From a virus: a stretch of 44,742 nt of DNA. Each line of letters opens with the position of its first letter. The first letter of the stretch is position 1. The stretch is taken from the IMG/VR virus record IMGVR_UViG_3300037474_000089; one strand, given 5' to 3'. The notes under the pieces are model-generated. The model had not been told where the DNA came from. It was given only the letters and a program-made list of their open reading frames with translations, and did not search any database. This document shows positions 12,615-32,318 of the stretch, in pieces. The position numbers and the translations under genes are program-made.

Positions 12615-12938
12615 CCCGAAGCAGTCGTAATCCCCGAACGTTTTTTGTTTAGTCCATTCGTTCGGTCTTATATCTATCTTATTGTTTTTATTAATAATAT
12701 TAATATATTGGACTGAAGGACTGAATGAATAACATTGCTCCCAGAAATCTATACATAGTATACATTTTATGGTATATTGTATAGCGTATACATGTACGTA
12801 TAACCATGTATAGATTTATGTAAAGGAGTTTTATGGATTTCGTTCGGATTTTGGTAATACAAATCGCTACAACCCACGTCTACCAAGGGATGCCCGAGAA
12901 CTGGAGCAAATTTTGTCCGTTCGGGCTTGTTCGGGCTT
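12615..12938. repeat. Repeat-dense intergenic hub with iteron-like CGTTCGG copies and several other short repeats
   Basis: CGTTCGG(G) occurs at 12632-12640 (inverted), 12659-12665, 12841-12847 and 12918-12925. GTTCGGGCTT is a tandem pair (12919-12928, 12929-12938). TATTAATA occurs twice (12689-12705), GGACTGAA twice (12710-12725), and TATACAT three times direct (12750, 12759, 12787) plus once inverted (12806-12812). Confidence 0.7.
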
Positions 12939-12978
12939 AAGTCCAAATGTTTGATGAATTAAAATGAGAGGAAACAAG

Positions 12979-13245
12979 ATGATATCAAAAGATTACGCCA
13001 TGTGCAATAAGTTAATTACTTACGATGATTGTCGTCCGTGCTACAGGAATCATCCGCCCCAGAGATATACTAAAACCGGAAAGTGTGTATATTGTCATCG
13101 TGAGAAAGCTAAAATAAACAGAAGGTCTCTCAATCAACATAAAGCTCACGAGCTTGGATTAGTCCAGATGGAGGTATTAGTACATCCAGACGATGTTGAA
13201 ACGGTGAAATCCCTGATTAAAGCTCTTAGAATTGACAGGATGTAG
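12979..13245 (+). CDS. Small Cys-rich (CxxC...CxxC) protein, unknown function
   Basis: I prefer ATG 12979, preceded by GAGAGGAAACAAG. The sequence contains CRPC...CVYC. The track ORF starts at 12964. Confidence 0.5.
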   Translation: MISKDYAMCNKLITYDDCRPCYRNHPPQRYTKTGKCVYCHREKAKINRRSLNQHKAHELGLVQMEVLVHPDDVETVKSLIKALRIDRM

Positions 13246-13277
13246 TATACTAAACTATCAATCATAGGAGGTTTACC

Positions 13278-13454
13278 ATGAAAGACCGACCCAAGAAAGA
13301 TAGCCAAAAGTTTTTTAAAGAAATAAAACAGGAGCATCCAGAAGTCTCTATGATACAAACTACAACGGTCACCGTGAACATTGATCAAAAGGATGATTGC
13401 ATGACCGGATGTTTCAAAGCGTTATCTGATTGTTTTAAACGCAAAAGTAGTTGA
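13278..13454 (+). CDS. Hypothetical 58-aa protein
   Basis: Strong RBS ATAGGAGGT 8 nt upstream. Sequence begins MKDRPKKDSQKFFKEIKQEHPE. Its TGA stop lies inside the -35 box of promoter P1. It falls below the 60-aa threshold of the ORF track. Confidence 0.5.
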   Translation: MKDRPKKDSQKFFKEIKQEHPEVSMIQTTTVTVNIDQKDDCMTGCFKALSDCFKRKSS

Positions 13455-13479
13455 CATAATATAGATAATATTCTATAGT
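13443..13479 (+). promoter_or_regulatory. Promoter P1: conserved cassette AAAAGTAGTTGACA-N3-TATAGA-N6-TC-TATAGT
   Basis: TTGACA (13451-13456), a 17-nt spacer, then TATAGT (13474-13479). It has the same 37-bp architecture as 28439-28475 (+) and 14834-14798 (-). Confidence 0.65.
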
Positions 13480-13486
13480 TTGTTAT

Positions 13487-13630
13487 ATGGTGATTTCGGC
13501 GTGGACAGTGACACGTATTGCGTATGGTTACGCGTTTACAGTGAGACTTCGAATTCTCACCGGGCGGCGGCCAGGATTATGGTTCGATTCCAGACGAAGG
13601 CGAGCCGGTGCAATTCCGGCAGATCACCTC
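13487..13630 (+). ncRNA. Unclassified structured RNA / 5' leader with tRNA-like T-loop hairpins (about 140 nt)
   Basis: It starts about 7 nt after the P1 -10 box. A closing helix pairs GGTGATTT (13489-96) with AGATCACC (13621-28). Internal hairpins lie at 13500-15, 13520-33, 13541-60 (loop CTTCGAAT), 13578-94 (TATGG-TTCGATT-CCAGA) and 13604-20 (GCCGG-TGCAATT-CCGGC). By my count 46 of 74 nt in 13555-13628 are G/C, in an AT-rich genome. Confidence 0.5.
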
Positions 13631-13649
13631 TAACTATAAAGGAGTTGGT

Positions 13650-14063
13650 ATGTTTCTTAAAACACTAGCAGTTGGCATAATGTCTATTATTACAACAAAT
13701 ATTGCGTTAGCATTAGACAATGTACATATAGCCACATGCGCTATGGATGTAATCTTATCTCAACATTCTTTAATGCCTACGGATTTTTTCAGCAAGCATG
13801 CGTTCTCTATCACTAACAATTCTCCAATACCTATGAACTACAAGATTGTATATCAGCATGAAGTAATGAATATGTTTTCTGAAAAGAAAGCTGTTAACAT
13901 CGTGGTCAACCCTGGCCAAACGGTGATGGAAGTTAAAACCTTCTCAAATAAGAAAGTGTGGGAAAATAACGGTCAGTTTCAAACTCGTGCAATGACCATC
14001 ATATTCTTGGATGGTAAACGAGTTGATAGCTGCGCTAATAACAATTATGCGTACATTACATGA
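13650..14063 (+). CDS. Secreted protein with signal peptide (137 aa), unknown function
   Basis: RBS AAAGGAG. N-terminus is MFLKTLAVGIMSIITTNIALA|LDN. The track ORF 13608.. begins upstream, inside the RNA element. Confidence 0.6.
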   Translation: MFLKTLAVGIMSIITTNIALALDNVHIATCAMDVILSQHSLMPTDFFSKHAFSITNNSPIPMNYKIVYQHEVMNMFSEKKAVNIVVNPGQTVMEVKTFSNKKVWENNGQFQTRAMTIIFLDGKRVDSCANNNYAYIT

Positions 14064-14296
14064 AAAAATACTCAACTAAAGAAGTAGCAAAGATTCTGGG
14101 GGTGTGTCACCAAAGGATTTTTGCAAAAATTAAACAAGGTCACTTCCCCGGATCGCACAATTGCGAATGCGGCCGTAGTATACTAATACCTGAACATGAC
14201 GTTCTTAACCAACCTAAGAAAAGGAATGGCAGGTATGAAAAAACTAATGGCGGTAATCCTCCTAACGATTGCGATAGCGGCACAAGCAGGAAGTAG
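14060..14296 (+). CDS. Excisionase/AlpA/MerR-type HTH DNA-binding protein
   Basis: YSTKEVAKILGVCHQRIFAKIKQGHFPG....ILIPEHDV. Its start overlaps the upstream stop as ATGA. Confidence 0.6.
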   Translation: MKKYSTKEVAKILGVCHQRIFAKIKQGHFPGSHNCECGRSILIPEHDVLNQPKKRNGRYEKTNGGNPPNDCDSGTSRK

Positions 14297-14633
14297 TGGC
14301 TCCTGCGGCACAAAAATAACCTGTAAGCCTGGTAATGAAGCTAAATGCGAAATGACCAACGGCAGCAGCGATATCTTCATGCAAGTATCTTACCTAAACT
14401 TATCTGAAAAAACAGATTTAGCTCTGAGCGATTTATATGCGTACACGATTAAAAATAACGGGGTGATAGATTGTTATTACTCTTTGGCTTTTAATCCAGA
14501 TGATGTGATAGTGTTCAAAACAGTACCTCATCACAATGTTGTACCAAGGGATGCTTCAGAGTGGGTAAAGAGATATGATACTTTGTATTGCGATCCCGAT
14601 ATCCACTCTTGCTTGATTTACATTTTATATTAA
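14235..14633 (+). CDS. Secreted Cys-rich protein with signal peptide (132 aa), unknown function
   Basis: MKKLMAVILLTIAIAAQA|GSSGSC. The start is uncertain (the track ORF starts at 14196). It overlaps the HTH gene by about 60 nt. Confidence 0.5.
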   Translation: MKKLMAVILLTIAIAAQAGSSGSCGTKITCKPGNEAKCEMTNGSSDIFMQVSYLNLSEKTDLALSDLYAYTIKNNGVIDCYYSLAFNPDDVIVFKTVPHHNVVPRDASEWVKRYDTLYCDPDIHSCLIYILY

Positions 14634-14730
14634 GTAAGTTAATGCATTTAAAAACAGGGTGACCGATACACCAAAACAAAAGAAGGTTAGTATTTGACAA
14701 TTGGTCATCCATGCTTTAAAACGGTAGGTC

Positions 14731-14797
14731 AGTGAGGTCCGGTTAACTCTGATAGCTTGTGGCATAGCTTAAGTCCCTTTAATTGATTGACCTCACT
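14731..14797. repeat. Inverted repeat AGTGAGGTC ... GACCTCACT (9 bp arms, 49-nt loop) between convergent gene blocks
   Basis: The arms lie at 14731-14739 and 14789-14797. The loop contains ATAGCTT twice. On the minus strand the hairpin is followed by ...CCGTTTT. Confidence 0.6.
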
Positions 14798-14834
14798 ACT
14801 GTAGAACATCATCTATAGCTTGTCAACTACTTTT
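14798..14834 (-). promoter_or_regulatory. Promoter P3: third copy of the conserved cassette (AAAAGTAGTTGACA-AGC-TATAGA-TGATGT-TC-TACAGT)
   Basis: On the minus strand the -35 is 14826-14821 and the -10 is 14803-14798. It fires into the hairpin region and runs antisense to the 13650-14633 operon. Confidence 0.55.
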
Positions 14835-15025
14835 AATGAATCGATTGCTCTACACAGTTGGTCATGTACATGGTCAAAACAATCTGTACATATATCTTCG
14901 TATTTGAACCTTTCTTTGAATACTGCAACTACTGACATTGCAGCGCCCGTTTTGGGCGCATACAATAGTTTTGCATCTCTAGATTCTTTCTTACATAGAT
15001 CACACTTGTAAATGGTTATCTTCAT
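14813..15025 (-). CDS. Small Cys-rich (zinc-finger-like) protein, 70 aa
   Basis: CDLC...CTDC. ATGA-type coupling to the primase-helicase gene. The C-terminus LKVVDKL is encoded by promoter cassette P3. Confidence 0.5.
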   Translation of the reverse strand: MKITIYKCDLCKKESRDAKLLYAPKTGAAMSVVAVFKERFKYEDICTDCFDHVHDQLCRAIDSLKVVDKL

Positions 15026-17346
15026 GCTTGCGAGTCCTTATATGCTTTAACGATTTCTTTGGGATCTTTCAGTTCACAATCTTCATGGTTGGTTCGTATG
15101 TACAGTCTTGGCTTCGTACTTTCTCCTGCCATAACCGTAGGAGTCCTACCTTCTTTAAGATGCGGGTGCCAGTCGTATCCAATTGACTTAAGAAGTTCAC
15201 GTCTCTTATTACGTGCAATCCTCTTATCAGCTCCAATATCTTTAAGAAGTGCATCAAATGCGGTAGAGCAAATCCATCCTCCTTTAAAACCAACACGTTC
15301 GGATTCAACCGCTTCAAGAATTTCATGCTCCACTCTACCAAATCCATGTTCGATTGCAGCTTCAGTACTTGAGGTTGACGGTGCGCGCGAGCATTTAAGA
15401 GGGTTAAATTCATCTTTAATAGGGTAAGAGAGTAAGAAGTCTGCAATGGCTGCGTATCCACCGTTCTTCGCCCAGTTATAGAGGTCAGGACAGTATGCAC
15501 CCATCATCCCATCGCGATGTAAATCTTCAACTGATTGTTGCGGCGTATAGAAGATCGCAAATCGTCGATCATCTTTAGACTTACGAAGAGCATCCTTATG
15601 GTTCGTGTTGATGATATAGTTGCAGCAAATGTCTTTCATGGTTTTCTTCTTGCCTTTGCCTTCGACCATTTGTCTCTCGAGGTCAAGCATTGGCTTTAGG
15701 GTTTCCATGATTTCAGCACGTGAATCAGGATAATAAGCGTCTTCAATTGATACAAATATGGCGCCATCTGCCCAATCGTTGAACCTACTAGCTATTTCAT
15801 CCGCGCGAGGAAACTGTGTATATCGATCGCCTATAATATAAGATATGACTCTTGAGAAGAAAGTCTTACCGTTCCCTTGGGTGCCTTGCAATACTATACA
15901 CCATTTAAACTTCTTACCTATAAACTGAACTAACGCTGCTAAATAGCTTAAAATAATATCTTGGTCGCGTTTATTAGGAAAAAGCTTTTCAACATGGTCT
16001 AAGAATAATGATACGTCCCCTTTCTGTCTAACGCACTGATAAGGCCAATATGTATTAACAACCAGTTCACCATCTTTATTGTATACGTGTCCAGATTCCA
16101 TATCCGGTTTGAATGTACAACTGTTCACTCTAGTAAACTTAACTGCTGTTGAAAGAGTGAAAGCTTCCCAAGCTTTATTGGTAGTCTTGGCATTCTCACC
16201 GCTAGTTACGAAAATATAACCGCCATACATTACATTGAACCGTTCTCTATCCAACAGATATCCCCCGGGGACAAGTATCATGTTTTCATGACATACGTAC
16301 ACGCACCCCCGAAAGTGCTCTAACTGCTCTTGAATGGTCATAAAACCGCTCCCACTCGTGCCAATTATTTGACTAGGAGTTTCAGTCTTGGTAACATTCT
16401 GTTTAGTTTGTTTCGAATAAACGTTTGAACACTTACCGCGGGCGCTCCTGATCGTTCGCGGTAAATAATCCTCGCGATCCCATTTGTCTCTAGCCAACTT
16501 TGATTGTCTCATTAAGCTCAACATTCGCTCTGCGTTACATCCAGTCCAGAAAGCAAGATGCTGCGCAAGAGCTGCATCAGCACTAGATCGGTTATAAGTG
16601 TCAGAATCATGTGGATATGACTTAGCTAATACTTCTTCATTGTTTTCCCAAAGATCAGCAAAAGTCGCGCCGTCGTGCCCAAATTTCGATCTGTTACTTT
16701 TAGAAGCTAACGCCATACGGATTAGTTCATTGTCATCTATGGGCCCGTTATATTCGGGCAAAGGTTCTGTAGACCACCACTCTTTCTCCGTGGGAGTTGA
16801 AATAGTTGCTTGCAAATAGGAGGTAGATATTTCCTTAAGTGCTTCGGTACAATCTATGCTGGCGTCACCTGCTGCATGTATGCCAGTTAGCGCAACAAAA
16901 CGTTTGGATGTATAAAACTCTAAACCGAGTTTATCATTTCTGCACCCGTGGTTGAAGTCACTGCATTTACCTATAATGTGCAAACCTTTACCGGATGCTG
17001 AAACTTCCACAGCGGCACCAGCTAGTTTCTGTAAAAGAGTTTTTGACAAATCAGACCATCCAGCTTCAGGTTCGTAACAAGAATCGATGTCTAATAAGAA
17101 GAATGGATCGGACTCAGTAAGAACGAATCCGACTCCATAAGACTCACCCAAACGCTTTGAGGCTGACGAAGCTGAATCAAAATCAGTCCAAATGGTTGAA
17201 TCATGAGCATCCCAAGTCTGTCCATTCTGATAGTTAACAGGTCTTTTGATCTTCTTGTTAACATTAGTTGGATTATTGGTTATTGAATAAACTATAAATT
17301 GATGATAATTTTTAAGTGCATAAAACGCCGTTGGTAATATATCCAT
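15022..17346 (-). CDS. Bifunctional primase-polymerase (AEP) / SF3 helicase replication protein
   Basis: N-terminal motifs FFLLDIDSC and SASGKGLHII are AEP prim-pol motifs. The C-terminal Walker A is VLQGTQGNGKTFF. Length is 774 aa. Confidence 0.85.
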   Translation of the reverse strand: MDILPTAFYALKNYHQFIVYSITNNPTNVNKKIKRPVNYQNGQTWDAHDSTIWTDFDSASSASKRLGESYGVGFVLTESDPFFLLDIDSCYEPEAGWSDLSKTLLQKLAGAAVEVSASGKGLHIIGKCSDFNHGCRNDKLGLEFYTSKRFVALTGIHAAGDASIDCTEALKEISTSYLQATISTPTEKEWWSTEPLPEYNGPIDDNELIRMALASKSNRSKFGHDGATFADLWENNEEVLAKSYPHDSDTYNRSSADAALAQHLAFWTGCNAERMLSLMRQSKLARDKWDREDYLPRTIRSARGKCSNVYSKQTKQNVTKTETPSQIIGTSGSGFMTIQEQLEHFRGCVYVCHENMILVPGGYLLDRERFNVMYGGYIFVTSGENAKTTNKAWEAFTLSTAVKFTRVNSCTFKPDMESGHVYNKDGELVVNTYWPYQCVRQKGDVSLFLDHVEKLFPNKRDQDIILSYLAALVQFIGKKFKWCIVLQGTQGNGKTFFSRVISYIIGDRYTQFPRADEIASRFNDWADGAIFVSIEDAYYPDSRAEIMETLKPMLDLERQMVEGKGKKKTMKDICCNYIINTNHKDALRKSKDDRRFAIFYTPQQSVEDLHRDGMMGAYCPDLYNWAKNGGYAAIADFLLSYPIKDEFNPLKCSRAPSTSSTEAAIEHGFGRVEHEILEAVESERVGFKGGWICSTAFDALLKDIGADKRIARNKRRELLKSIGYDWHPHLKEGRTPTVMAGESTKPRLYIRTNHEDCELKDPKEIVKAYKDSQA

Positions 17347-17369: not shown

Positions 17370-17675
17370 TTATTTAGATAGGTACAGTAAGACCTTCTCC
17401 TTAAGCTGAGGAGGTAGCCGTTTCGTAAGAGGGTCTTTTCGTACCAAGCCTTGTGCAATTATTTCCAATACTTCGGTTCTGATAGCCTCTTTAAGCACCA
17501 AGCGTCTGAGGTTATCCATAGATTGAAAATAACGAGTCACTAAACCATACGATACTCCTGCTCGTTCTGCAACACCATCCCTCGTTATGTGGCTATATCC
17601 TATTTCTTTTGACAGTTCTACAGCTTCTGTTAATAATTCGTTCTTACGATCATCAGGTAGTTTTCGCTCTCTCAT
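17370..17675 (-). CDS. Mini TetR-family HTH protein (DNA-binding domain only, 101 aa)
   Basis: I prefer the start MRERKLP (ATG 17675, RBS GGAGAAC). RKNELLTEAVELSKEIGYSHITRDGVAERAGVSYGLVTRYFQSMDNLRRLVL matches the TetR_N pattern. There is no ligand-binding domain. Confidence 0.6.
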   Translation of the reverse strand: MRERKLPDDRKNELLTEAVELSKEIGYSHITRDGVAERAGVSYGLVTRYFQSMDNLRRLVLKEAIRTEVLEIIAQGLVRKDPLTKRLPPQLKEKVLLYLSK

Positions 17676-17862
17676 TTTGTTCTCCACAGTCTTTGCATAC
17701 TGTACGTATACCTTCATTAGATTTATAAACCTTAGAACGTGTATGTTTACATCCGTTCTTTTTAGCATGACATTGTTTGCACAATATTTGCTTTTCATGA
17801 ATCATGATCTTTAATCCATCTAATCTGCCGCAATCCCTGCACATCATTTTAATCATCTCCAT
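17653..17862 (-). CDS. Zinc-ribbon protein (four CxxC pairs), 69 aa
   Basis: CRDC...CKQC...CKDC. It overlaps the TetR-like gene by 23 nt. Confidence 0.5.
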   Translation of the reverse strand: MEMIKMMCRDCGRLDGLKIMIHEKQILCKQCHAKKNGCKHTRSKVYKSNEGIRTVCKDCGEQNERAKTT

Positions 17863-18788: not shown

Positions 18789-18819
18789 ATGCTAACCTCT
18801 ATTAACTATTTCGTCAATA
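18789..18819 (-). promoter_or_regulatory. Promoter with operator half-match (TATTGAC-gaaata-GTTAATA; TTGACG-17-TAGCAT) upstream of the VRR-NUC gene
   Basis: On the plus strand 18800-18819 reads TATTAAC-N6-GTCAATA, one mismatch from the palindrome found at 20425 and 23851. Confidence 0.4.
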
Positions 18820-20424: not shown

Positions 20425-20444
20425 TATTGACTAGTTCGTCAATA
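20425..20444. promoter_or_regulatory. Palindromic operator TATTGAC-tagttc-GTCAATA in the divergent promoter region
   Basis: The 7-bp arms are perfect. The same arms recur at 23851-23870, and with one mismatch at 18800-18819. Confidence 0.6.
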
Positions 20445-23688: not shown

Positions 23689-23856
23689 ATGCCTAAACAA
23701 TATAAAACATTGACTACTATTGATAGTAAAGAAAGTTTAGATGATCAAGTTACAAAGCATCTTAATGAAGGTTGGGAGTTATACGGTAATCCTTATATGT
23801 GCGTTATCGATTACACTATGATAATTTTTCAAGCTTTAATTAAAAATAACTATTGA
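23689..23856 (+). CDS. DUF1737-like small protein (55 aa)
   Basis: RBS GGAGG. LDDQVTKHLNEGWELYGNPYM. The stop lies inside the next promoter's -35 box. Confidence 0.45.
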   Translation: MPKQYKTLTTIDSKESLDDQVTKHLNEGWELYGNPYMCVIDYTMIIFQALIKNNY

Positions 23857-23881
23857 CGAACCCGTCAATAAGAGTTAATAT
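23851..23881 (+). promoter_or_regulatory. Promoter plus operator: TATTGAC-gaaccc-GTCAATA; TTGACG-17-TAATAT
   Basis: Second perfect copy of the palindrome. It lies upstream of the SSB-like gene. Confidence 0.55.
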
Positions 23882-27547: not shown

Positions 27548-27714
27548 TTATATATCTAGTGAGTTTACGCATAGCAGAAAGAAATGAAATTATAGTAGAA
27601 GCTTTTCTTTCGAAAGTAAAAGCGGAAAATCGAGTTAATCAATTCAATTCAGGTATGGGCTGTTCAAGCTCATTTCCAAAAGCGCAGTATGTAGAAGTCG
27701 AGGTAATAGAATGA
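27544..27714 (+). CDS. Hypothetical 56-aa protein
   Basis: Start MIIYLVSL at an ATGA overlap. Coupled to the methyltransferase gene. Confidence 0.4.
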   Translation: MIIYLVSLRIAERNEIIVEAFLSKVKAENRVNQFNSGMGCSSSFPKAQYVEVEVIE

Positions 27715-28460
27715 AACACCTAGATATGTTTAGTGGAATAGGAGGTTTTGCATTAGCGGCACAATGGGCTGGAATTGATACTATTGGGTTTAGTGAGATA
27801 GACAAATTCTGCTGCAAAGTTTTAAAGAAGCATTGGCCTCACATCACTAACTACGGCGACATACGTCAAATAGAGGAACTTCCTCATGTAGATTTGATGA
27901 CAGGCGGATTTCCATGTCAACCATTCAGTAGTGCAGGAAAGAAAAGGGGAAAGGAAGATGAACGATATTTGTGGCCACAATTCTACAGAGCAATCAAACT
28001 CTCTAAGCCAACTTGGATTGTTATCGAAAATGTTAAGGGAGCAGTTGACCTGGTACTCGAAACAATCTGTTCTGATTTGGAAGCACAAGATTACGAAGTG
28101 CAATCGCTCATTATACCAGCTTGTGGCACCGATGCGCCGCATAGACGGGAAAGGTTATGGATTGTTGCCCACTCCAACAGCAAGCGAGTTAACTTCAGGT
28201 TCAGTGATTGGGAAGAACGACGTGTACAAAAAGACCCGTACGGGGACATGGCGCAAATACAATCAGAATGGGAAGAACTCAAGCCTAACTCTTGGTCGTC
28301 TTATGATTTTGAGCAATACCTATCCTTTAACGCCTTATCTCATGGAGATGGTTATGGGATACCCAATAGGTTGGACAGAGGTAAATCTTTAGGCAACTCT
28401 ATAGTACCTCAAGTAATATTTCCTATATTAAGATTGATAAAAGTAGTTGACAATCTATAG
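27711..28460 (+). CDS. DNA (cytosine-5)-methyltransferase (compact, 249 aa). See the finding on methyltransferase-like motifs in the +1 frame.
   Basis: Motif I is DMFSGIGGF, IV is GGFPCQPFS, VI is ENVKG, VIII is PHRRERLWIVA and X is LGNSIVPQV. Confidence 0.88.
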   Translation: MKHLDMFSGIGGFALAAQWAGIDTIGFSEIDKFCCKVLKKHWPHITNYGDIRQIEELPHVDLMTGGFPCQPFSSAGKKRGKEDERYLWPQFYRAIKLSKPTWIVIENVKGAVDLVLETICSDLEAQDYEVQSLIIPACGTDAPHRRERLWIVAHSNSKRVNFRFSDWEERRVQKDPYGDMAQIQSEWEELKPNSWSSYDFEQYLSFNALSHGDGYGIPNRLDRGKSLGNSIVPQVIFPILRLIKVVDNL

Positions 28461-28475
28461 AAGACGATCTATAGT
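28439..28475 (+). promoter_or_regulatory. Promoter P2: conserved cassette AAAAGTAGTTGACA-ATC-TATAGA-AGACGA-TC-TATAGT
   Basis: The -35 is 28447-28452 and the -10 is 28470-28475. It is embedded in the last codons of the methyltransferase gene (KVVDNL*). Confidence 0.6.
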
Positions 28476-28512: not shown

Positions 28513-28683
28513 ATGAATACTTTATATGAAACAATTTTAACAGGCGCTTTAATTATACTTGTTGGTTATCAAATTCATGTTAATAACGAAGTAGTTAAAT
28601 TGATGACAGCTTCACAAATGCAAGCAGTTTCGGCGATGAATGACATGAATAACAAACTTCATATGACCTTCATAAAAAGCTAG
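28513..28683 (+). CDS. Small membrane protein (56 aa, one TM segment)
   Basis: RBS GGAGACGG. ILTGALIILVGY. Confidence 0.4.
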   Translation: MNTLYETILTGALIILVGYQIHVNNEVVKLMTASQMQAVSAMNDMNNKLHMTFIKS

Positions 28684-28924: not shown

Positions 28925-28931
28925 GAGTAAT

Positions 28932-29010
28932 CGGAGGCGTCAGAACCCTTATAGTTTCCGGCCAAAGAAACCAAACTATAAGGTATACAGAGAACGCCTC
29001 CATTTTTTTT
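28932..29010 (+). terminator. Compound long-stem intrinsic terminator (8-bp and 11-bp helices) followed by T9
   Basis: GGAGGCGT (28932-39) pairs with ACGCCTCC (28993-29000). CCTTATAGTTT (28946-56) pairs with AAACTATAAGG (28972-82). A run of nine T follows at 29002-29010. Confidence 0.7.
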
Positions 29011-29031
29011 ATTAAGGAAAGGAGCATCAAG

Positions 29032-29868
29032 ATGTTTAAAAAAGCTATAATCGGAGTTTCCTCTGTTTTAGTATGTGCGACAATGACAGCTTGTACAAAA
29101 GTACCAGCGGGTCATAAAGGCGTTATTGTCAATTTGTATGGTTCTGATAAAGGAGTTTCAGAAGAAACGGTTGGTGTGGGTAGATATTACTTAGGTTGGA
29201 ATAAAGAATTATATTTGTTTCCAGTTTTTCTTCAAAATTACACGTGGACTGGCGAAGAACAAATAACCATGCAAACTTCAGAAGGACTTTCTATATCGGC
29301 AGATGTTGGTGTTACTTATAATATTAGACCAGAAAATGTCAGCAAAGTTTTTCAAAAATACAGATTAGGTATTGACGAAATAACCCATACCTTTCTCCAC
29401 AACATGGTTAGAGACGCAATGAATCAAGTGTCTTCTACTATGACAGTCGAACAACTTTATGGTGAAAAGAAAGAGCAATTTATCATAAAAGTAAACAACA
29501 TTGTAAAAGAAGAATGTTTGGACGTTGGAATTGACATGGACAAAATCTATCTTATTGGTTCCTTTAAATTACCAGACAATGTCGTAAATTCAATAAACGC
29601 TAAAATTCAAGCAAGTCAAAATGCAATGAAAGTAGAAAATGAAGTTGCCACAGCAAAAGCAGAAGCTTTAAAAACAGTGGTAGTAGCAGAAGCTGAAGCA
29701 CAACGTATTTTAATTGACGCTAAAGCTAGAGCCGAATCTAACAGATTACTATCTGAAAGTTTAACCCCCTCATTTATTCAATACCAAACATTGCTTAAAT
29801 GGGATGGTAAATTACCTCAGATTACAGGTTCTTCCACTATACCTATGATCAACTTAAAGAGTAGTTAA
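29032..29868 (+). CDS. SPFH/Band-7 (prohibitin/HflC-like) lipoprotein
   Basis: Signal plus lipobox-like sequence VLVCATMTAC. SPFH core is VPAGHKGVIVNLYG...GLSISADVGVTYNI...VRDAMNQV, followed by a C-terminal coiled coil AEAEAQRILIDAKARAE. Confidence 0.8.
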   Translation: MFKKAIIGVSSVLVCATMTACTKVPAGHKGVIVNLYGSDKGVSEETVGVGRYYLGWNKELYLFPVFLQNYTWTGEEQITMQTSEGLSISADVGVTYNIRPENVSKVFQKYRLGIDEITHTFLHNMVRDAMNQVSSTMTVEQLYGEKKEQFIIKVNNIVKEECLDVGIDMDKIYLIGSFKLPDNVVNSINAKIQASQNAMKVENEVATAKAEALKTVVVAEAEAQRILIDAKARAESNRLLSESLTPSFIQYQTLLKWDGKLPQITGSSTIPMINLKSS

Positions 29869-29869
29869 T

Positions 29870-30058
29870 ATGAAAAAATCCGTATTAGCGTTAATTTTAA
29901 TATTCCTAGGTTTTTATGACCTAGGAATCGTTATACCCTGGATTATATCAACAGCTTTACTTCCAGTAATATTTATAGTCATTTTCTTATGCATACATGT
30001 AATTATTTTTTATTTCATAGGTTATAAAGTTTCAAAATTATTTAAAAAGGAGAAATAA
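29870..30058 (+). CDS. Small two-TM membrane protein (62 aa)
   Basis: Almost entirely hydrophobic with a basic C-terminus. Lies 1 nt after the SPFH stop. Confidence 0.5.
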   Translation: MKKSVLALILIFLGFYDLGIVIPWIISTALLPVIFIVIFLCIHVIIFYFIGYKVSKLFKKEK

Positions 30059-30059
30059 C

Positions 30060-30233
30060 ATGAGTTTTTTGAATATACTACAGTTAATATTAATAACTCT
30101 TAAACTATGCCAATTTATTAATTGGTCTTGGTGGTATGTCTTAGCGCCTTGCTTATTTCAAATAGTATTTTCTTTATTAACAATAGCGTTAGCTATTTAT
30201 GCGGCTGAAAAGAAAAAAGGTAAATACCTATGA
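30060..30233 (+). CDS. Small two-TM membrane protein (57 aa)
   Basis: ILQLILITLKLCQFINWSWWYVLAPCLF.... Falls below the track threshold. Confidence 0.45.
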   Translation: MSFLNILQLILITLKLCQFINWSWWYVLAPCLFQIVFSLLTIALAIYAAEKKKGKYL

Positions 30234-30397
30234 AGTACTTTGCTATTGTTATTCTAATTTTAACAATGGGTATTAACCTAGCTACTTATATCGAAATAAA
30301 AGAAATATCTCTTAAAATGGACGGGTTCCAAACTATAGAAGTAGAAGAACCTGCACTATTAAGATTACTAAAAGGGGCAATTAAATGGCTGATTTAA
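30230..30397 (+). CDS. Small N-terminally anchored membrane protein (55 aa)
   Basis: ATGA overlap. MKYFAIVILILTMGINLATY. Confidence 0.4.
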   Translation: MKYFAIVILILTMGINLATYIEIKEISLKMDGFQTIEVEEPALLRLLKGAIKWLI

Positions 30398-31582: not shown

Positions 31583-31824
31583 TTCTTTTCCTCCTTTTTG
31601 GTGGATTTTCCAGTTAGATGTAGGTTTATGCCAAACCCTACGGCCATAGCCGTACATCCACTAGCAAACTCCATTGCGGTCCATCCATGGCCTAAAAATG
31701 CATTGTAGAAAGCAAGCATGTAATAAATAGTGAAGCTCATAGCACAAATTATTCTGCCATTGTCGAAACTTTCATTATCGTGGGCGGTAATGCTATCTTT
31801 AAATATTTTAAATAAAACATTCAT
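31579..31824 (-). CDS. Holin-like two-TM protein (81 aa)
   Basis: Two hydrophobic segments and a charged tail KSTKKEEKK. It lies directly downstream of the endolysin gene. Confidence 0.55.
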   Translation of the reverse strand: MNVLFKIFKDSITAHDNESFDNGRIICAMSFTIYYMLAFYNAFLGHGWTAMEFASGCTAMAVGFGINLHLTGKSTKKEEKK

Positions 31825-32318
31825 ATCATAGCCCTCCTTATCCAGCCTTCTAAATTTTTAAGTTGCTTTCGATTTATACTAACACGGTTAAGGTAAAACT
31901 TCACTAGCTCTAGCCGTAGATGGTCTACTATATGACATTCTGGTAATTTATTTACCATCTGTACTGTTCTACTACCGAATACCCCATCTTCCGCTATGCT
32001 GTTGTTGATTCTATTAATTGCTTTTTGAACACAGGTTGCTGCCGAAGATGGCGATAGATTAACGAAAATTAGCAGTAACTGAGTTGATACTAAAGAACTA
32101 TTGATATCATTTAGTTTGTATTTTAACCAAAAATCATGGTAGTAAATATCGATTGCTTTATCTATTTGAAGAGTCTTGATGTCTAACTGAGGATATGATC
32201 TTTTACTTATTCCGAAATTTGTTTCGCCGCCGGGATCATCGGGGTCATTGACGTACCCTCCTTCCATCTGAAGGAGAACCCCGATTGCCTGTTTAAAATT
32301 TAAGTCTTTATAATCCAA
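31821..32318 (-). CDS. Endolysin, glycoside hydrolase family 108 with a PG_binding_3-like C-terminus
   Basis: QMEGGYVNDPDDPGGETNFGIS is the GH108 signature. The C-terminal part contains DGVFGSRTV. Confidence 0.85.
   Translation of the reverse strand: MDYKDLNFKQAIGVLLQMEGGYVNDPDDPGGETNFGISKRSYPQLDIKTLQIDKAIDIYYHDFWLKYKLNDINSSLVSTQLLLIFVNLSPSSAATCVQKAINRINNSIAEDGVFGSRTVQMVNKLPECHIVDHLRLELVKFYLNRVSINRKQLKNLEGWIRRAMI

Follow-up and report, generated by a model that had tools for sequence, protein, structure and literature searches.

Why would a phage genome place two copies of the same promoter cassette face to face around a handful of small genes? The question is raised by a locus in IMG/VR virus record IMGVR_UViG_3300037474_000089, a stretch of 44,742 nucleotides (nt) that we analysed as a whole, call the window, and to which all coordinates refer unless a relative is named. 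An earlier note on this DNA had described two facing 37-bp cassettes, here P1 and P3, and had taken their convergence and identity to imply transcriptional interference or antisense control of the module between them. Our results point instead to another answer, which we consider moderately probable: the cassettes would belong to an operator-controlled regulon of three promoters, whose regulator, a 78-amino-acid (aa) protein of the helix-turn-helix (HTH) family HTH_17, is encoded in the module itself. The three cassettes are the following.

13443-13479, plus strand: P1 cassette, AAAAGTAGTTGACATAATATAGATAATATTCTATAGT (sequence read, consensus scan, pattern counts, conservation).
14834-14798, minus strand: P3 cassette, AAAAGTAGTTGACAAGCTATAGATGATGTTCTACAGT (sequence read, consensus scan, pattern counts, conservation).
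28439-28475, plus strand: third cassette (exact 14-mer, full-pattern match, promoter hexamers).

P1 and P3 point toward each other and enclose a segment of 1.36 kb. The full pattern GTTGACANNNTATAGANNNNNNTCTAYAGT, GTTGACA-N3-TATAGA-N6-TCTAYAGT, has three matches in the window (13450 plus, 14827 minus and 28446 plus) and none in 100 shuffled sequences (mean 0.00, maximum 0), and the 14-mer AAAAGTAGTTGACA is found exactly at 13443 (plus), 14834 (minus) and 28439 (plus). The inverted repeat TATAGA-N6-TCTATA alone is matched three times in the window versus 0.21 expected. The repetition of the cassette is far beyond chance, and the facing pair described earlier is real, although that description had missed the third copy at 28439, the dyad inside each cassette and the upstream open reading frames (ORFs) that end in them.

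The cassettes also look real as promoters, as had been supposed, with near-consensus hexamers, 17-bp spacers and conservation across relatives. P1 (TTGACA-17-TATAGT) has 11 of 12 matches to the sigma-70 consensus and the top rank in the promoter scan of the region, P3 (TTGACA-17-TACAGT) has 10 of 12 and is joint second, and the third cassette reads TTGACA-17-TATAGT at 28447, so all three carry -35 and -10 hexamers within the 16-18 bp spacing of sigma-70 promoters. In P1, the -35 TTGACA (13451-13456) is followed by the half-sites TATAGA (13460-13465) and TCTATA (13472-13477) and by the -10 TATAGT (13474-13479), with a predicted start at about 13485-13487; in P3, on the minus strand, the corresponding elements are TTGACA (14826-14821), TATAGA (14817-14812), TCTACA (14805-14800) and TACAGT (14803-14798), with a predicted start at about 14791. 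The dyad covers positions of about -26 to -9 with its centre at about -17/-18, spanning the spacer and the upstream part of the -10, with which its right half has four bases in common. At 9-40 nt downstream of each cassette, a gene with a ribosome-binding site or, after P1, the closing stem of a structured RNA begins. Together, these features look like near-consensus sigma-70 promoters with a built-in operator. The stop codon of an upstream ORF lies inside the cassette in all three copies (ORFs 13278-13454, 14813-15025 and 27711-28460). Two of these three ORFs share a cassette-encoded tail, KVVD(K/N)L-stop, read through the TAG of CTATAG.

Relatives were gathered in three ways: through the primase, through the cassette pattern, and through homologues of the HTH protein and of a 137-aa protein of the module. 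Contigs L034-L036, L039 and L041-L043, retrieved with the cassette pattern, were not used, having unrelated flanks and no HTH homologue in the sequence at hand; by our own estimate, the number of such contigs is about that expected by chance among real promoters. Both facing cassettes are present in 10 lineages (the window, L001, L037, L040, L044, L047, L051, L052, L053 and L054), whose primases, where measurable, range from 99% down to 39% identity to that of the window. P1 is found at the equivalent place in L001, L037/38, L047, L050-L054 and L044, while P3 follows the primase or p70 gene directly in 10 lineages, and the distance between the two is 1.2-2.2 kb except in L040 (400 bp). The alignment of 18 distinct cassettes from 12 loci (the 19th row of its table is the reverse-strand reading of the L040 cassette at 794) gives the consensus gTaGTTGACaa.cTATAGat.a.g.TCTATAgT, in which the -35, both half-sites and the -10 are kept and N3 and N6 vary freely.

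As P3 overlaps a coding sequence, its conservation could in principle have been that of the protein encoded there:

14813-15025, minus strand: 70-aa Cys-rich ORF, variably present, whose last codons (KVVDKL-stop) are encoded by the P3 cassette.

Homologues of this ORF (42-70% identity) occur in L047/48, L049, L052, L053 and L054, but it is absent in L001, L033, L037, L044 and L051, where P3 is still conserved and where the stop codon of the primase falls inside the cassette in a different frame (..AQK-stop versus ..KVVDKL-stop). Since P3 is kept with or without the 70-aa ORF and in different reading frames, it must be more than coding sequence. In the same way, the third cassette, which overlaps the end of the DNA methyltransferase ORF 27711-28460 (..KVVDNL-stop), is retained in the L001 genome despite the missing methyltransferase gene. 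This cytosine-type methyltransferase gene, present in the window and absent from its closest IMG/VR relative (L032), is a variable gene.

The candidate reader of the dyad is encoded behind P1:

14060-14296, plus strand: gene of the 78-aa HTH_17 protein, the proposed binder of the dyad, its start overlapping the preceding stop (ATGA).

The protein matches the Pfam family HTH_17 with 29.8 bits versus a cut-off of 27. Its AlphaFold2 model is a winged helix (strand-helix-helix-strands-helix) with a predicted local distance difference test score (pLDDT) of about 90 for residues 1-50, and the tail beyond residue 50 is disordered in the model (pLDDT 55-60) and not conserved in the alignment. The top Foldseek matches of the model are HiNmlR, MtaN, RacA, BldC and Xis, with BmrR also matched, and its TM-scores (normalised by target length) to BldC, RacA and Pukovnik Xis are 0.6-0.8. 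The family comprises 16 clusters, all from uncultured sequences, with a nearly invariant recognition region. The dyad, allowing at most one mismatch, is found in every HTH_17-bearing locus scanned and in none of the 25 HTH-less relatives L002-L026 (about 366 kb). Shared ancestry alone is a weak explanation of this co-occurrence, since the HTH-bearing L044, L045 and L046 are no nearer to the window than the HTH-less phages, either in their primases (39-51% versus 40-49% identity) or in their TetR-like proteins (37-45% versus 36-47%). Moreover, L167, whose HTH protein is 52% identical and which was examined as a prospective test, has a perfect dyad promoter directly upstream of its HTH gene, and the cassette is likewise directly upstream of the HTH gene in L045 and L040. 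A changed repeat also accompanies a changed protein in L168, the one member examined with a divergent recognition helix. Thus one dyad recurs in several promoters and is conserved while its neighbours drift, and a DNA-binding protein tracks the site, as in an operator-controlled regulon; we regard the HTH_17 protein as a reasonably probable binder.

A second small regulator is encoded in the window, and with it a second palindrome:

17370-17798, minus strand: gene of a TetR-like protein, adjoining the primase gene in the window and all close relatives.
20427-20442 and 23853-23868, and a weaker copy at 18817 (minus strand): second palindrome TTGACG-N4-CGTCAA, TATTGACG-N4-CGTCAATA, with the -35 TTGACG inside.

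That the TetR-like protein, rather than HTH_17, binds TATAGA-N6-TCTATA might be expected from the palindromic operators to which TetR-family dimers bind and from the conservation of its gene beside the primase. Nevertheless, of the 25 relatives L002-L026, all of them without the dyad, 24 have the gene beside the primase, and TetR-like identity does not follow dyad presence, which makes this assignment very improbable. Those relatives carry TTGACG-N4-CGTCAA, a palindrome with an embedded -35 that is common where a TetR-like gene is present, in many cases right before that gene (L003, L012, L013, L018, L020, L024/25 and L026); we infer that this second palindrome is the site of the TetR-like protein, which suggests that the latter autoregulates and controls the replication arms. 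A different possibility accepts HTH_17 as the binder and has it act positively, either as a MerR-type activator that reshapes the spacer or as an AlpA/Q-type factor that loads onto RNA polymerase and suppresses termination. The MerR-like winged-HTH fold and the position of the dyad between the -35 and -10 of a sigma-70 promoter, as in MerR operators, speak for the former. MerR-type promoters usually have a spacer of 19-20 bp. In the cassettes, the spacer has the optimal length of 17 bp, the shift of the dyad centre towards and over the -10 predicts occlusion and not activation, the near-consensus hexamers imply that no activator is needed, and the protein has neither the C-terminal coiled-coil dimerisation helix nor an effector domain. 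As for the AlpA/Q type, the AlpA binding element also lies between -35 and -10, where one molecule occupies a 6-bp site, contacts DNA through residues at about 128-142 in an HTH formed by the C-terminal helices H7-H8, and places its N-terminal segment as a ring in the RNA exit channel (PMC9371919). The 78-aa protein, being only a winged helix of about 50 residues, lacks such a region N-terminal to the HTH, its predicted site has dyad symmetry, and neither a terminator nor a -10-like pause element is conserved after the three starts. A positive role is therefore distinctly unlikely.

Several observations do weigh against HTH_17 as a dimeric repressor reading this dyad. L168 carries an HTH homologue without the dyad (its promoter after the primase has a direct repeat, TATACTT-N7-TATACTT), and the co-occurrence of dyad and HTH gene could partly stem from the shared ancestry of HTH-bearing phages. 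The protein has no MerR dimerising coiled-coil, some of its domain-only relatives (BldC, Xis) bind direct and not inverted repeats, and the 12-bp centre-to-centre distance of the half-sites is slightly long for a simple dimer. The choice of repression over activation depends only on the operator position and on the near-consensus promoter with its 17-bp spacer. The comparison with BldC, the RacA N-domain and phage Xis is informative on both sides, as these proteins are of the same size class and fold, whereas BldC and Xis use head-to-tail direct repeats and DNA bending, and Xis acts with an integrase; here we find an inverted repeat within promoters. A functional excisionase would be expected to have a partner integrase and an att site in its own element; since no integrase or recombinase was detected among the approximately 40 larger ORFs scanned in the family searches, HTH_17 is not an excisionase in function, despite its first description as excisionase-type. 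In distant relatives (L002, L003-L008, L013 and L015-L017), we also observed several copies each of their own promoter-with-palindrome cassette, often with one directly after the primase, as exemplified by GTTGACATAGATAAATWATTTATCTATACT and CTTGACYTTATACCACCATTGAGGTATACT. As far as these comparisons reach, the promoter-with-palindrome architecture is conserved and the operator sequence is lineage-specific.

Within the proposed regulon, P1 would drive a tRNA-shaped RNA, two exported proteins and HTH_17; P3 would drive a 46-aa membrane protein; and the cassette at 28439 would drive further small membrane proteins. The products of the P1-P3 segment other than HTH_17 are:

13489-13628, plus strand: 140-nt tRNA-shaped scaffold RNA with closing stem, D-like and T-like hairpins and variable insert.
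13650-14063, plus strand: gene of a 137-aa protein that combines a hydrophobic helix at the N-terminus with an Ig-like (immunoglobulin-like) beta-sandwich.
14235-14633, plus strand: gene of a 132-aa protein whose N-terminus resembles a signal peptide; the final 9 nt of the gene overlap the end of the small ORF on the minus strand.
14765-14625, minus strand: gene of a 46-aa protein, directly downstream of P3, with in-frame indels and a conserved motif.

Two HTH_17 subunits on the dyad would repress the three promoters including their own. Indeed, with a near-consensus promoter, an optimal spacer and a dyad over about -26 to -9, a bound protein should occlude RNA polymerase, and through such occlusion the protein would negatively autoregulate P1 and repress P3 and the 28439 copy along with it. 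The outcome would resemble that expected of a lambda-type Cro acting at OR and OL, where a small DNA-binding protein is made from a promoter that it controls and one operator recurs in several early promoters, facing outward and inward, giving negative feedback and shut-off. The differences are that the present protein, whose binding is a prediction, is a MerR-type winged helix (HTH_17) and not Cro/HTH_3, that each promoter has one dyad versus three graded sites, and that neither a CI partner nor an integrase was found here, which speaks against a lysogeny switch. The best reading of the regulon is thus a known kind of phage circuit, with three promoters under operator control and a probable self-encoded mini winged-helix regulator.

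The contents of the module had been correctly described as a structured RNA, two proteins of signal-peptide type and an HTH protein, with the exception of the minus-strand 46-aa ORF, which was not listed. The 46-aa protein starts with a basic stretch (MPQAIRVNR...) and has a single C-terminal transmembrane segment. Its homologues are encoded after the primase gene in L001, L033, L037, L044, L046, L047 and L049, and another lies downstream of a P3-type cassette in the short contig L040, on which the primase region is not present; across nine lineages, the family shares the M-x-Q-A-I/V-R-V-N-R motif and the transmembrane segment, with lengths of 34-54 aa. Its in-frame indels together with this conserved motif and segment indicate that the 46-aa ORF is a real gene, and L051-L054 have small membrane ORFs at the equivalent position. 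P3 is hence no merely antisense promoter, as it has its own conserved protein-coding target. The 137-aa and 132-aa proteins both have N-terminal hydrophobic leaders, and no relation was found between them or to any family. The predicted structure of the former is a generic Ig-like sandwich that gives no functional lead, and its 23 homologue clusters are labelled only "hypothetical protein" apart from one evident mislabel; nine of the 23 come from contigs of 28-47 kb, and the six examined are phages of this group. Searches of the module proteins with PADLOC, PHROGs and Pfam gave no informative family, only weak mad1 HTH and weak DUF7685 matches.

The comparison of cargo between the same two cassettes, which the earlier note had proposed, does reveal different genes in relatives. 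L044 encodes 40-aa, 212-aa, HTH, 59-aa and DUF3310 proteins on one strand and 67-aa and 49-aa proteins on the other, and in L040 the HTH gene has a 41-aa membrane ORF as its sole companion, over a distance of 400 bp. As judged from these loci, what stays constant in the module is the cassette together with the HTH gene and the small membrane ORF, and the remaining cargo changes. The idea of an accessory module is therefore supported by its changing cargo but not by its composition, as its GC content (0.389 versus 0.388 for the window) is not foreign. In L045 and L167, the cassette is found only upstream of the HTH gene, with no facing copy in the roughly 0.5-0.6 kb before the primase gene, and in L046, P1 is present, P3 is absent and the membrane ORF is coupled to the primase. 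Short tandem or clustered repeats of iteron-like appearance, which could mark an origin, lie between the HTH unit and the primase gene in both L045 (5417-6011, five copies of a unit of about 52 bp) and L167 (2030-2520, ATGACAC/GTGTCAT clusters).

These distributions bear on the convergence from which we started. P1 and P3 could serve as a control device through it, their polymerases colliding or their overlapping 3' ends pairing, such that each unit limits the other and the read-through RNA from P1 is antisense to the mRNA of the small membrane protein. The two units do overlap: in 10 of 10 lineages, the small membrane ORF ends within the tail of the last rightward gene (typically by 9 nt, range 4-47 nt), and no terminator-like site was found between the two units in the window, so converging transcripts must meet; in addition, the small, hydrophobic protein and its guarded ribosome-binding site recall toxic peptides under tight control. 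Nevertheless, convergence is not universal, as L046 lacks P3, L045 and L167 have only the HTH-proximal copy, and the third cassette, 13.6 kb away in direct orientation, faces no other. The facing promoters are also far apart, except in L040, and interference does not need identical sequences, which shared operator control does. Convergent transcription as the control device is consequently rather unlikely. Coliphage 186 offers the nearest case of two convergent phage promoters with necessarily overlapping transcripts. Its pR and pL differ in sequence and strength, lie 62 bp apart and decide between lysis and lysogeny. In contrast, the same cassette is present here twice, 1.2-2.2 kb apart, each copy with its own coding targets. 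The inverted 37-bp copies might also be recombination sites between which the 1.36-kb segment is inverted or exchanged, given that they have internal dyad symmetry and flank a segment of differing cargo. This is hardly credible, however, as no recombinase was found among the larger ORFs scanned, the orientation of the segment relative to its flanks is identical in 10 of 10 lineages, the third copy lies in direct orientation, and the repeat coincides exactly with promoter hexamers at the correct spacing.

Most likely, then, the identity of the cassettes reflects a shared built-in operator for co-regulation. The face-to-face layout would follow from the genome arrangement, with P3 placed last in the leftward replication operon and P1 heading a short rightward unit. 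Convergence looks secondary, and interference or antisense pairing may occur as a possible consequence of it; the sequence identity is better explained by the operator.

Between P3 and its gene, we found one further element that could matter for expression:

14731-14797, minus strand: inverted repeat AGTGAGGTC (14797-14789) / GACCTCACT (14739-14731), enclosing the ribosome-binding site and start codon of the 46-aa ORF.

The upstream arm, 6-10 nt long, begins with the first base after the P3 -10, and its partner lies inside or just before the small ORF. Such pairing is present in seven lineages (the window, L001, L049, L051, L052, L054 and L044) and weakly in L053, with arms that are unrelated in sequence (AGUGAGGUC/GACCUCACU, GGUGAA/UUCACC, UGAUAGCGU/ACGCUAUCA and UGAACCUC/GAGGUUCA). 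In read-through RNA from the primase operon, the hairpin would mask the ribosome-binding site of the 46-aa ORF. Transcripts from P3 would lack most of the upstream arm, because their predicted start lies 6-9 nt after the -10, and the site would be open in them. A similar fold-back is known from IS10, with an inverted repeat whose upstream arm precedes the start site of the element itself, a likeness that we infer here from the arm positions in the seven lineages. In IS10, only outside read-through transcripts can mask the transposase ribosome-binding site. Two points count against the proposal, namely its dependence on a start at least 6 nt past the -10 and the lack of pairing in L047 and L040.

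Downstream of the third cassette are a 56-aa membrane protein (28513-28683), two small coiled-coil ORFs and a hairpin with a T-run at about 28925-29012. This long, GC-rich hairpin, followed by the T run, closes the short unit of the third cassette. Directly beyond it are a gene for an SPFH/band-7-like lipoprotein (29032-29868) and small membrane-protein ORFs (29870-30397).

The RNA behind P1 has a tRNA-like scaffold. In the window, its closing stem is formed by GGUGAUUU (13489-13496) and AGAUCACC (13621-13628) over 8 bp; it contains an invariant core GGCGUGGACAGUGACAC at 13498-13514, which is the D-like hairpin, a variable insert at about 13516-13602 that includes the T-loop-like GGUUCGAUUCC, and the T-like hairpin GCCGG-UGCAAUU-CCGGC at 13604-13620. 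Its GC content is 0.557 versus 0.388 for the genome. We found the invariant 17-mer GGCGTGGACAGTGACAC in 112 stretches of viral contigs from IMG/VR (the contigs of the 80 matches listed are about 5-225 kb long) and 118 times in all sequence examined, of which 113 are in viral loci, and 92 of the 118 have the 3' hairpin in range. From 5' to 3', the family layout consists of a closing stem of 8 bp, whose sequence is nearly arbitrary, a single unpaired base, a G, the hairpin GCGUG-GACAGUGA-CACGC, the insert (31-421 nt), a hairpin of 5 bp with the loop UGCAAUU and, immediately thereafter, the 3' strand of the closing stem. Among 53 distinct scaffolds, 95.4% of cells are paired versus 28-42% in slid controls, and double-sided changes number 261 versus 71 in shuffles, with none of 500 shuffles reaching 261; the pairing of the 3' hairpin was imposed by the extraction, that of the closing stem was not. 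Each closing-stem pair shows several Watson-Crick types, and compensatory changes are found in both stems between the window and L050/L054. A 48-aa ORF at 13487-13633 was considered as the cause of the conserved RNA ends and rejected, as insert lengths are not multiples of three and its ATG is present in one subfamily only. This ORF is almost certainly spurious, its "MxIxAWTVTR" reading being confined to that subfamily.

The likeness to a tRNA lies in an acceptor-like 8-bp stem stacked on a 5-bp T-like hairpin with a 7-nt T-loop-like loop, and in a D-like hairpin two bases after the closing stem. The scaffold differs from a tRNA in its T-loop UGCAAUU (U55 to G) and in having the anticodon and variable region replaced by an unrelated insert; only a minority of scaffold RNAs encode CCA, which, found at the strict position in 7 of 80, is not a family feature. 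Rfam 15 (at gathering and permissive thresholds, including tRNA and tmRNA) and ARAGORN gave nothing at the RNA element in the window and 18 relatives, and the compact family members received no ARAGORN or Rfam tRNA or tmRNA call, although the same tools detected the real tRNAs of L053, L054, L100 and L153. The scaffold was also compared for its tRNA-like shape with the tRNA-like domain of tmRNA, of which it has no Rfam match, and with engineered "tRNA scaffolds". YrlA Y RNA mimics tRNA in a permuted layout, unlike the scaffold RNA (PMC4201824). The core sequence was not found in a literature search and is absent from cultured phage records; for the family, there is no prior description or known match that we found. 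Other members are not enriched in upstream sigma-70 promoters (4/96 versus 6/96 in controls).

The stretch between P1 and the first ORF is hypervariable: it is about 40 nt without any RNA element in L047, a different leader of about 90 nt in L001, and about 140-650 nt long in the window, L037/38 and L050-L054, with L051 (about 140-150 nt) at the short end of this range and L053 (up to about 650 nt) at the long end. The conserved ends of the RNA of the window are shared with L037/38, L050 and L054, and in L054 they flank a tRNA. True tRNAs occupy the P1 slot of L053 and L054 (54.6 and 47 bits, also called by ARAGORN). They are called as tRNA-Phe with the unusual anticodon AAA (L053 2194-2269 and L054 2294-2369), and that of L054 lies inside the scaffold RNA insert. 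Of the 113 occurrences in viral loci, 12 lie no more than 500 nt from a tRNA, in each case one on the same strand, and one scaffold RNA lies between tRNA-Pro and tRNA-Met in an array of seven tRNAs. Another RNA-like module is found in the P1 slot of L051 (2174-2320), L033 (1-116), L053 (1845-1965) and L054 (2084-2215), with a closing stem GUGAGGC..GCCUCAC or GAGAGC..GCUCUC and the conserved internal motifs CCGGUCUUAGGGGCC and UUCCUCUA. A third, with ends UGGCCGACGAUACU ... GGGAAAAUAGGCCAC and a variable middle, is present in L052 (2275-2385 and 2385-2490) and L054 (2399-2485), as well as in L066, L077, L102 and L130, and adjoins the scaffold RNA in several unrelated viral contigs, from which phages may carry arrays of such cassettes. 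We tentatively propose, at somewhat less than even confidence, that the scaffold RNA represents an undescribed and widespread phage class, a tRNA-shaped scaffold with a freely exchangeable insert of 31-421 nt in the position of the anticodon arm. Two ideas lead as to its role: it may serve as a natural scaffold of tRNA type on which variable small RNAs are expressed, or it may act as a decoy for host enzymes directed at tRNAs. Among the phages of this group, it would occupy a hypervariable slot directly behind a repressible early promoter, a slot that in relatives holds true tRNAs and the two other RNA modules.

At about 44.7 kb, the window appears to be a complete genome, and contigs carrying its proteins are 44.6-45.0 kb long. 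Family searches recovered a myovirus gene set (tail sheath, baseplate, tape measure, head and terminase genes), a GH108-type endolysin at 31821-32318 (minus strand), and a replication set of helicase, NrS-1-type primase-polymerase (15022-17346, minus strand), DNA polymerase, exonuclease, Gp2.5-like single-stranded DNA-binding protein and DNA methyltransferase. The primase shares 42-47% identity with its counterparts in Shewanella phage SppYZU01, Acinetobacter phage Scuro and Klebsiella JD001-like phages. Neither a megablast search of 12900-15100 against 50,697 cultured phage records nor a tblastn search with the HTH_17 protein against phage records gave a match, and nothing relevant was found in the literature on promoters of Jedunavirus-like phages.

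For uncultured myoviruses with NrS-1-type primase-polymerases, these results provide a regulatory map that is open to testing, in which two promoter-operator types can be assigned to two small regulators by sequence comparison alone. The RNA points to a large phage family, with its 112 IMG/VR viral stretches, clear covariation and no Rfam entry. The conserved and tightly guarded small membrane protein appears as the constant partner of the regulator, and the latter, a minimal winged-helix protein of the kind usually annotated as "excisionase", may serve as a Cro-like repressor of early genes.

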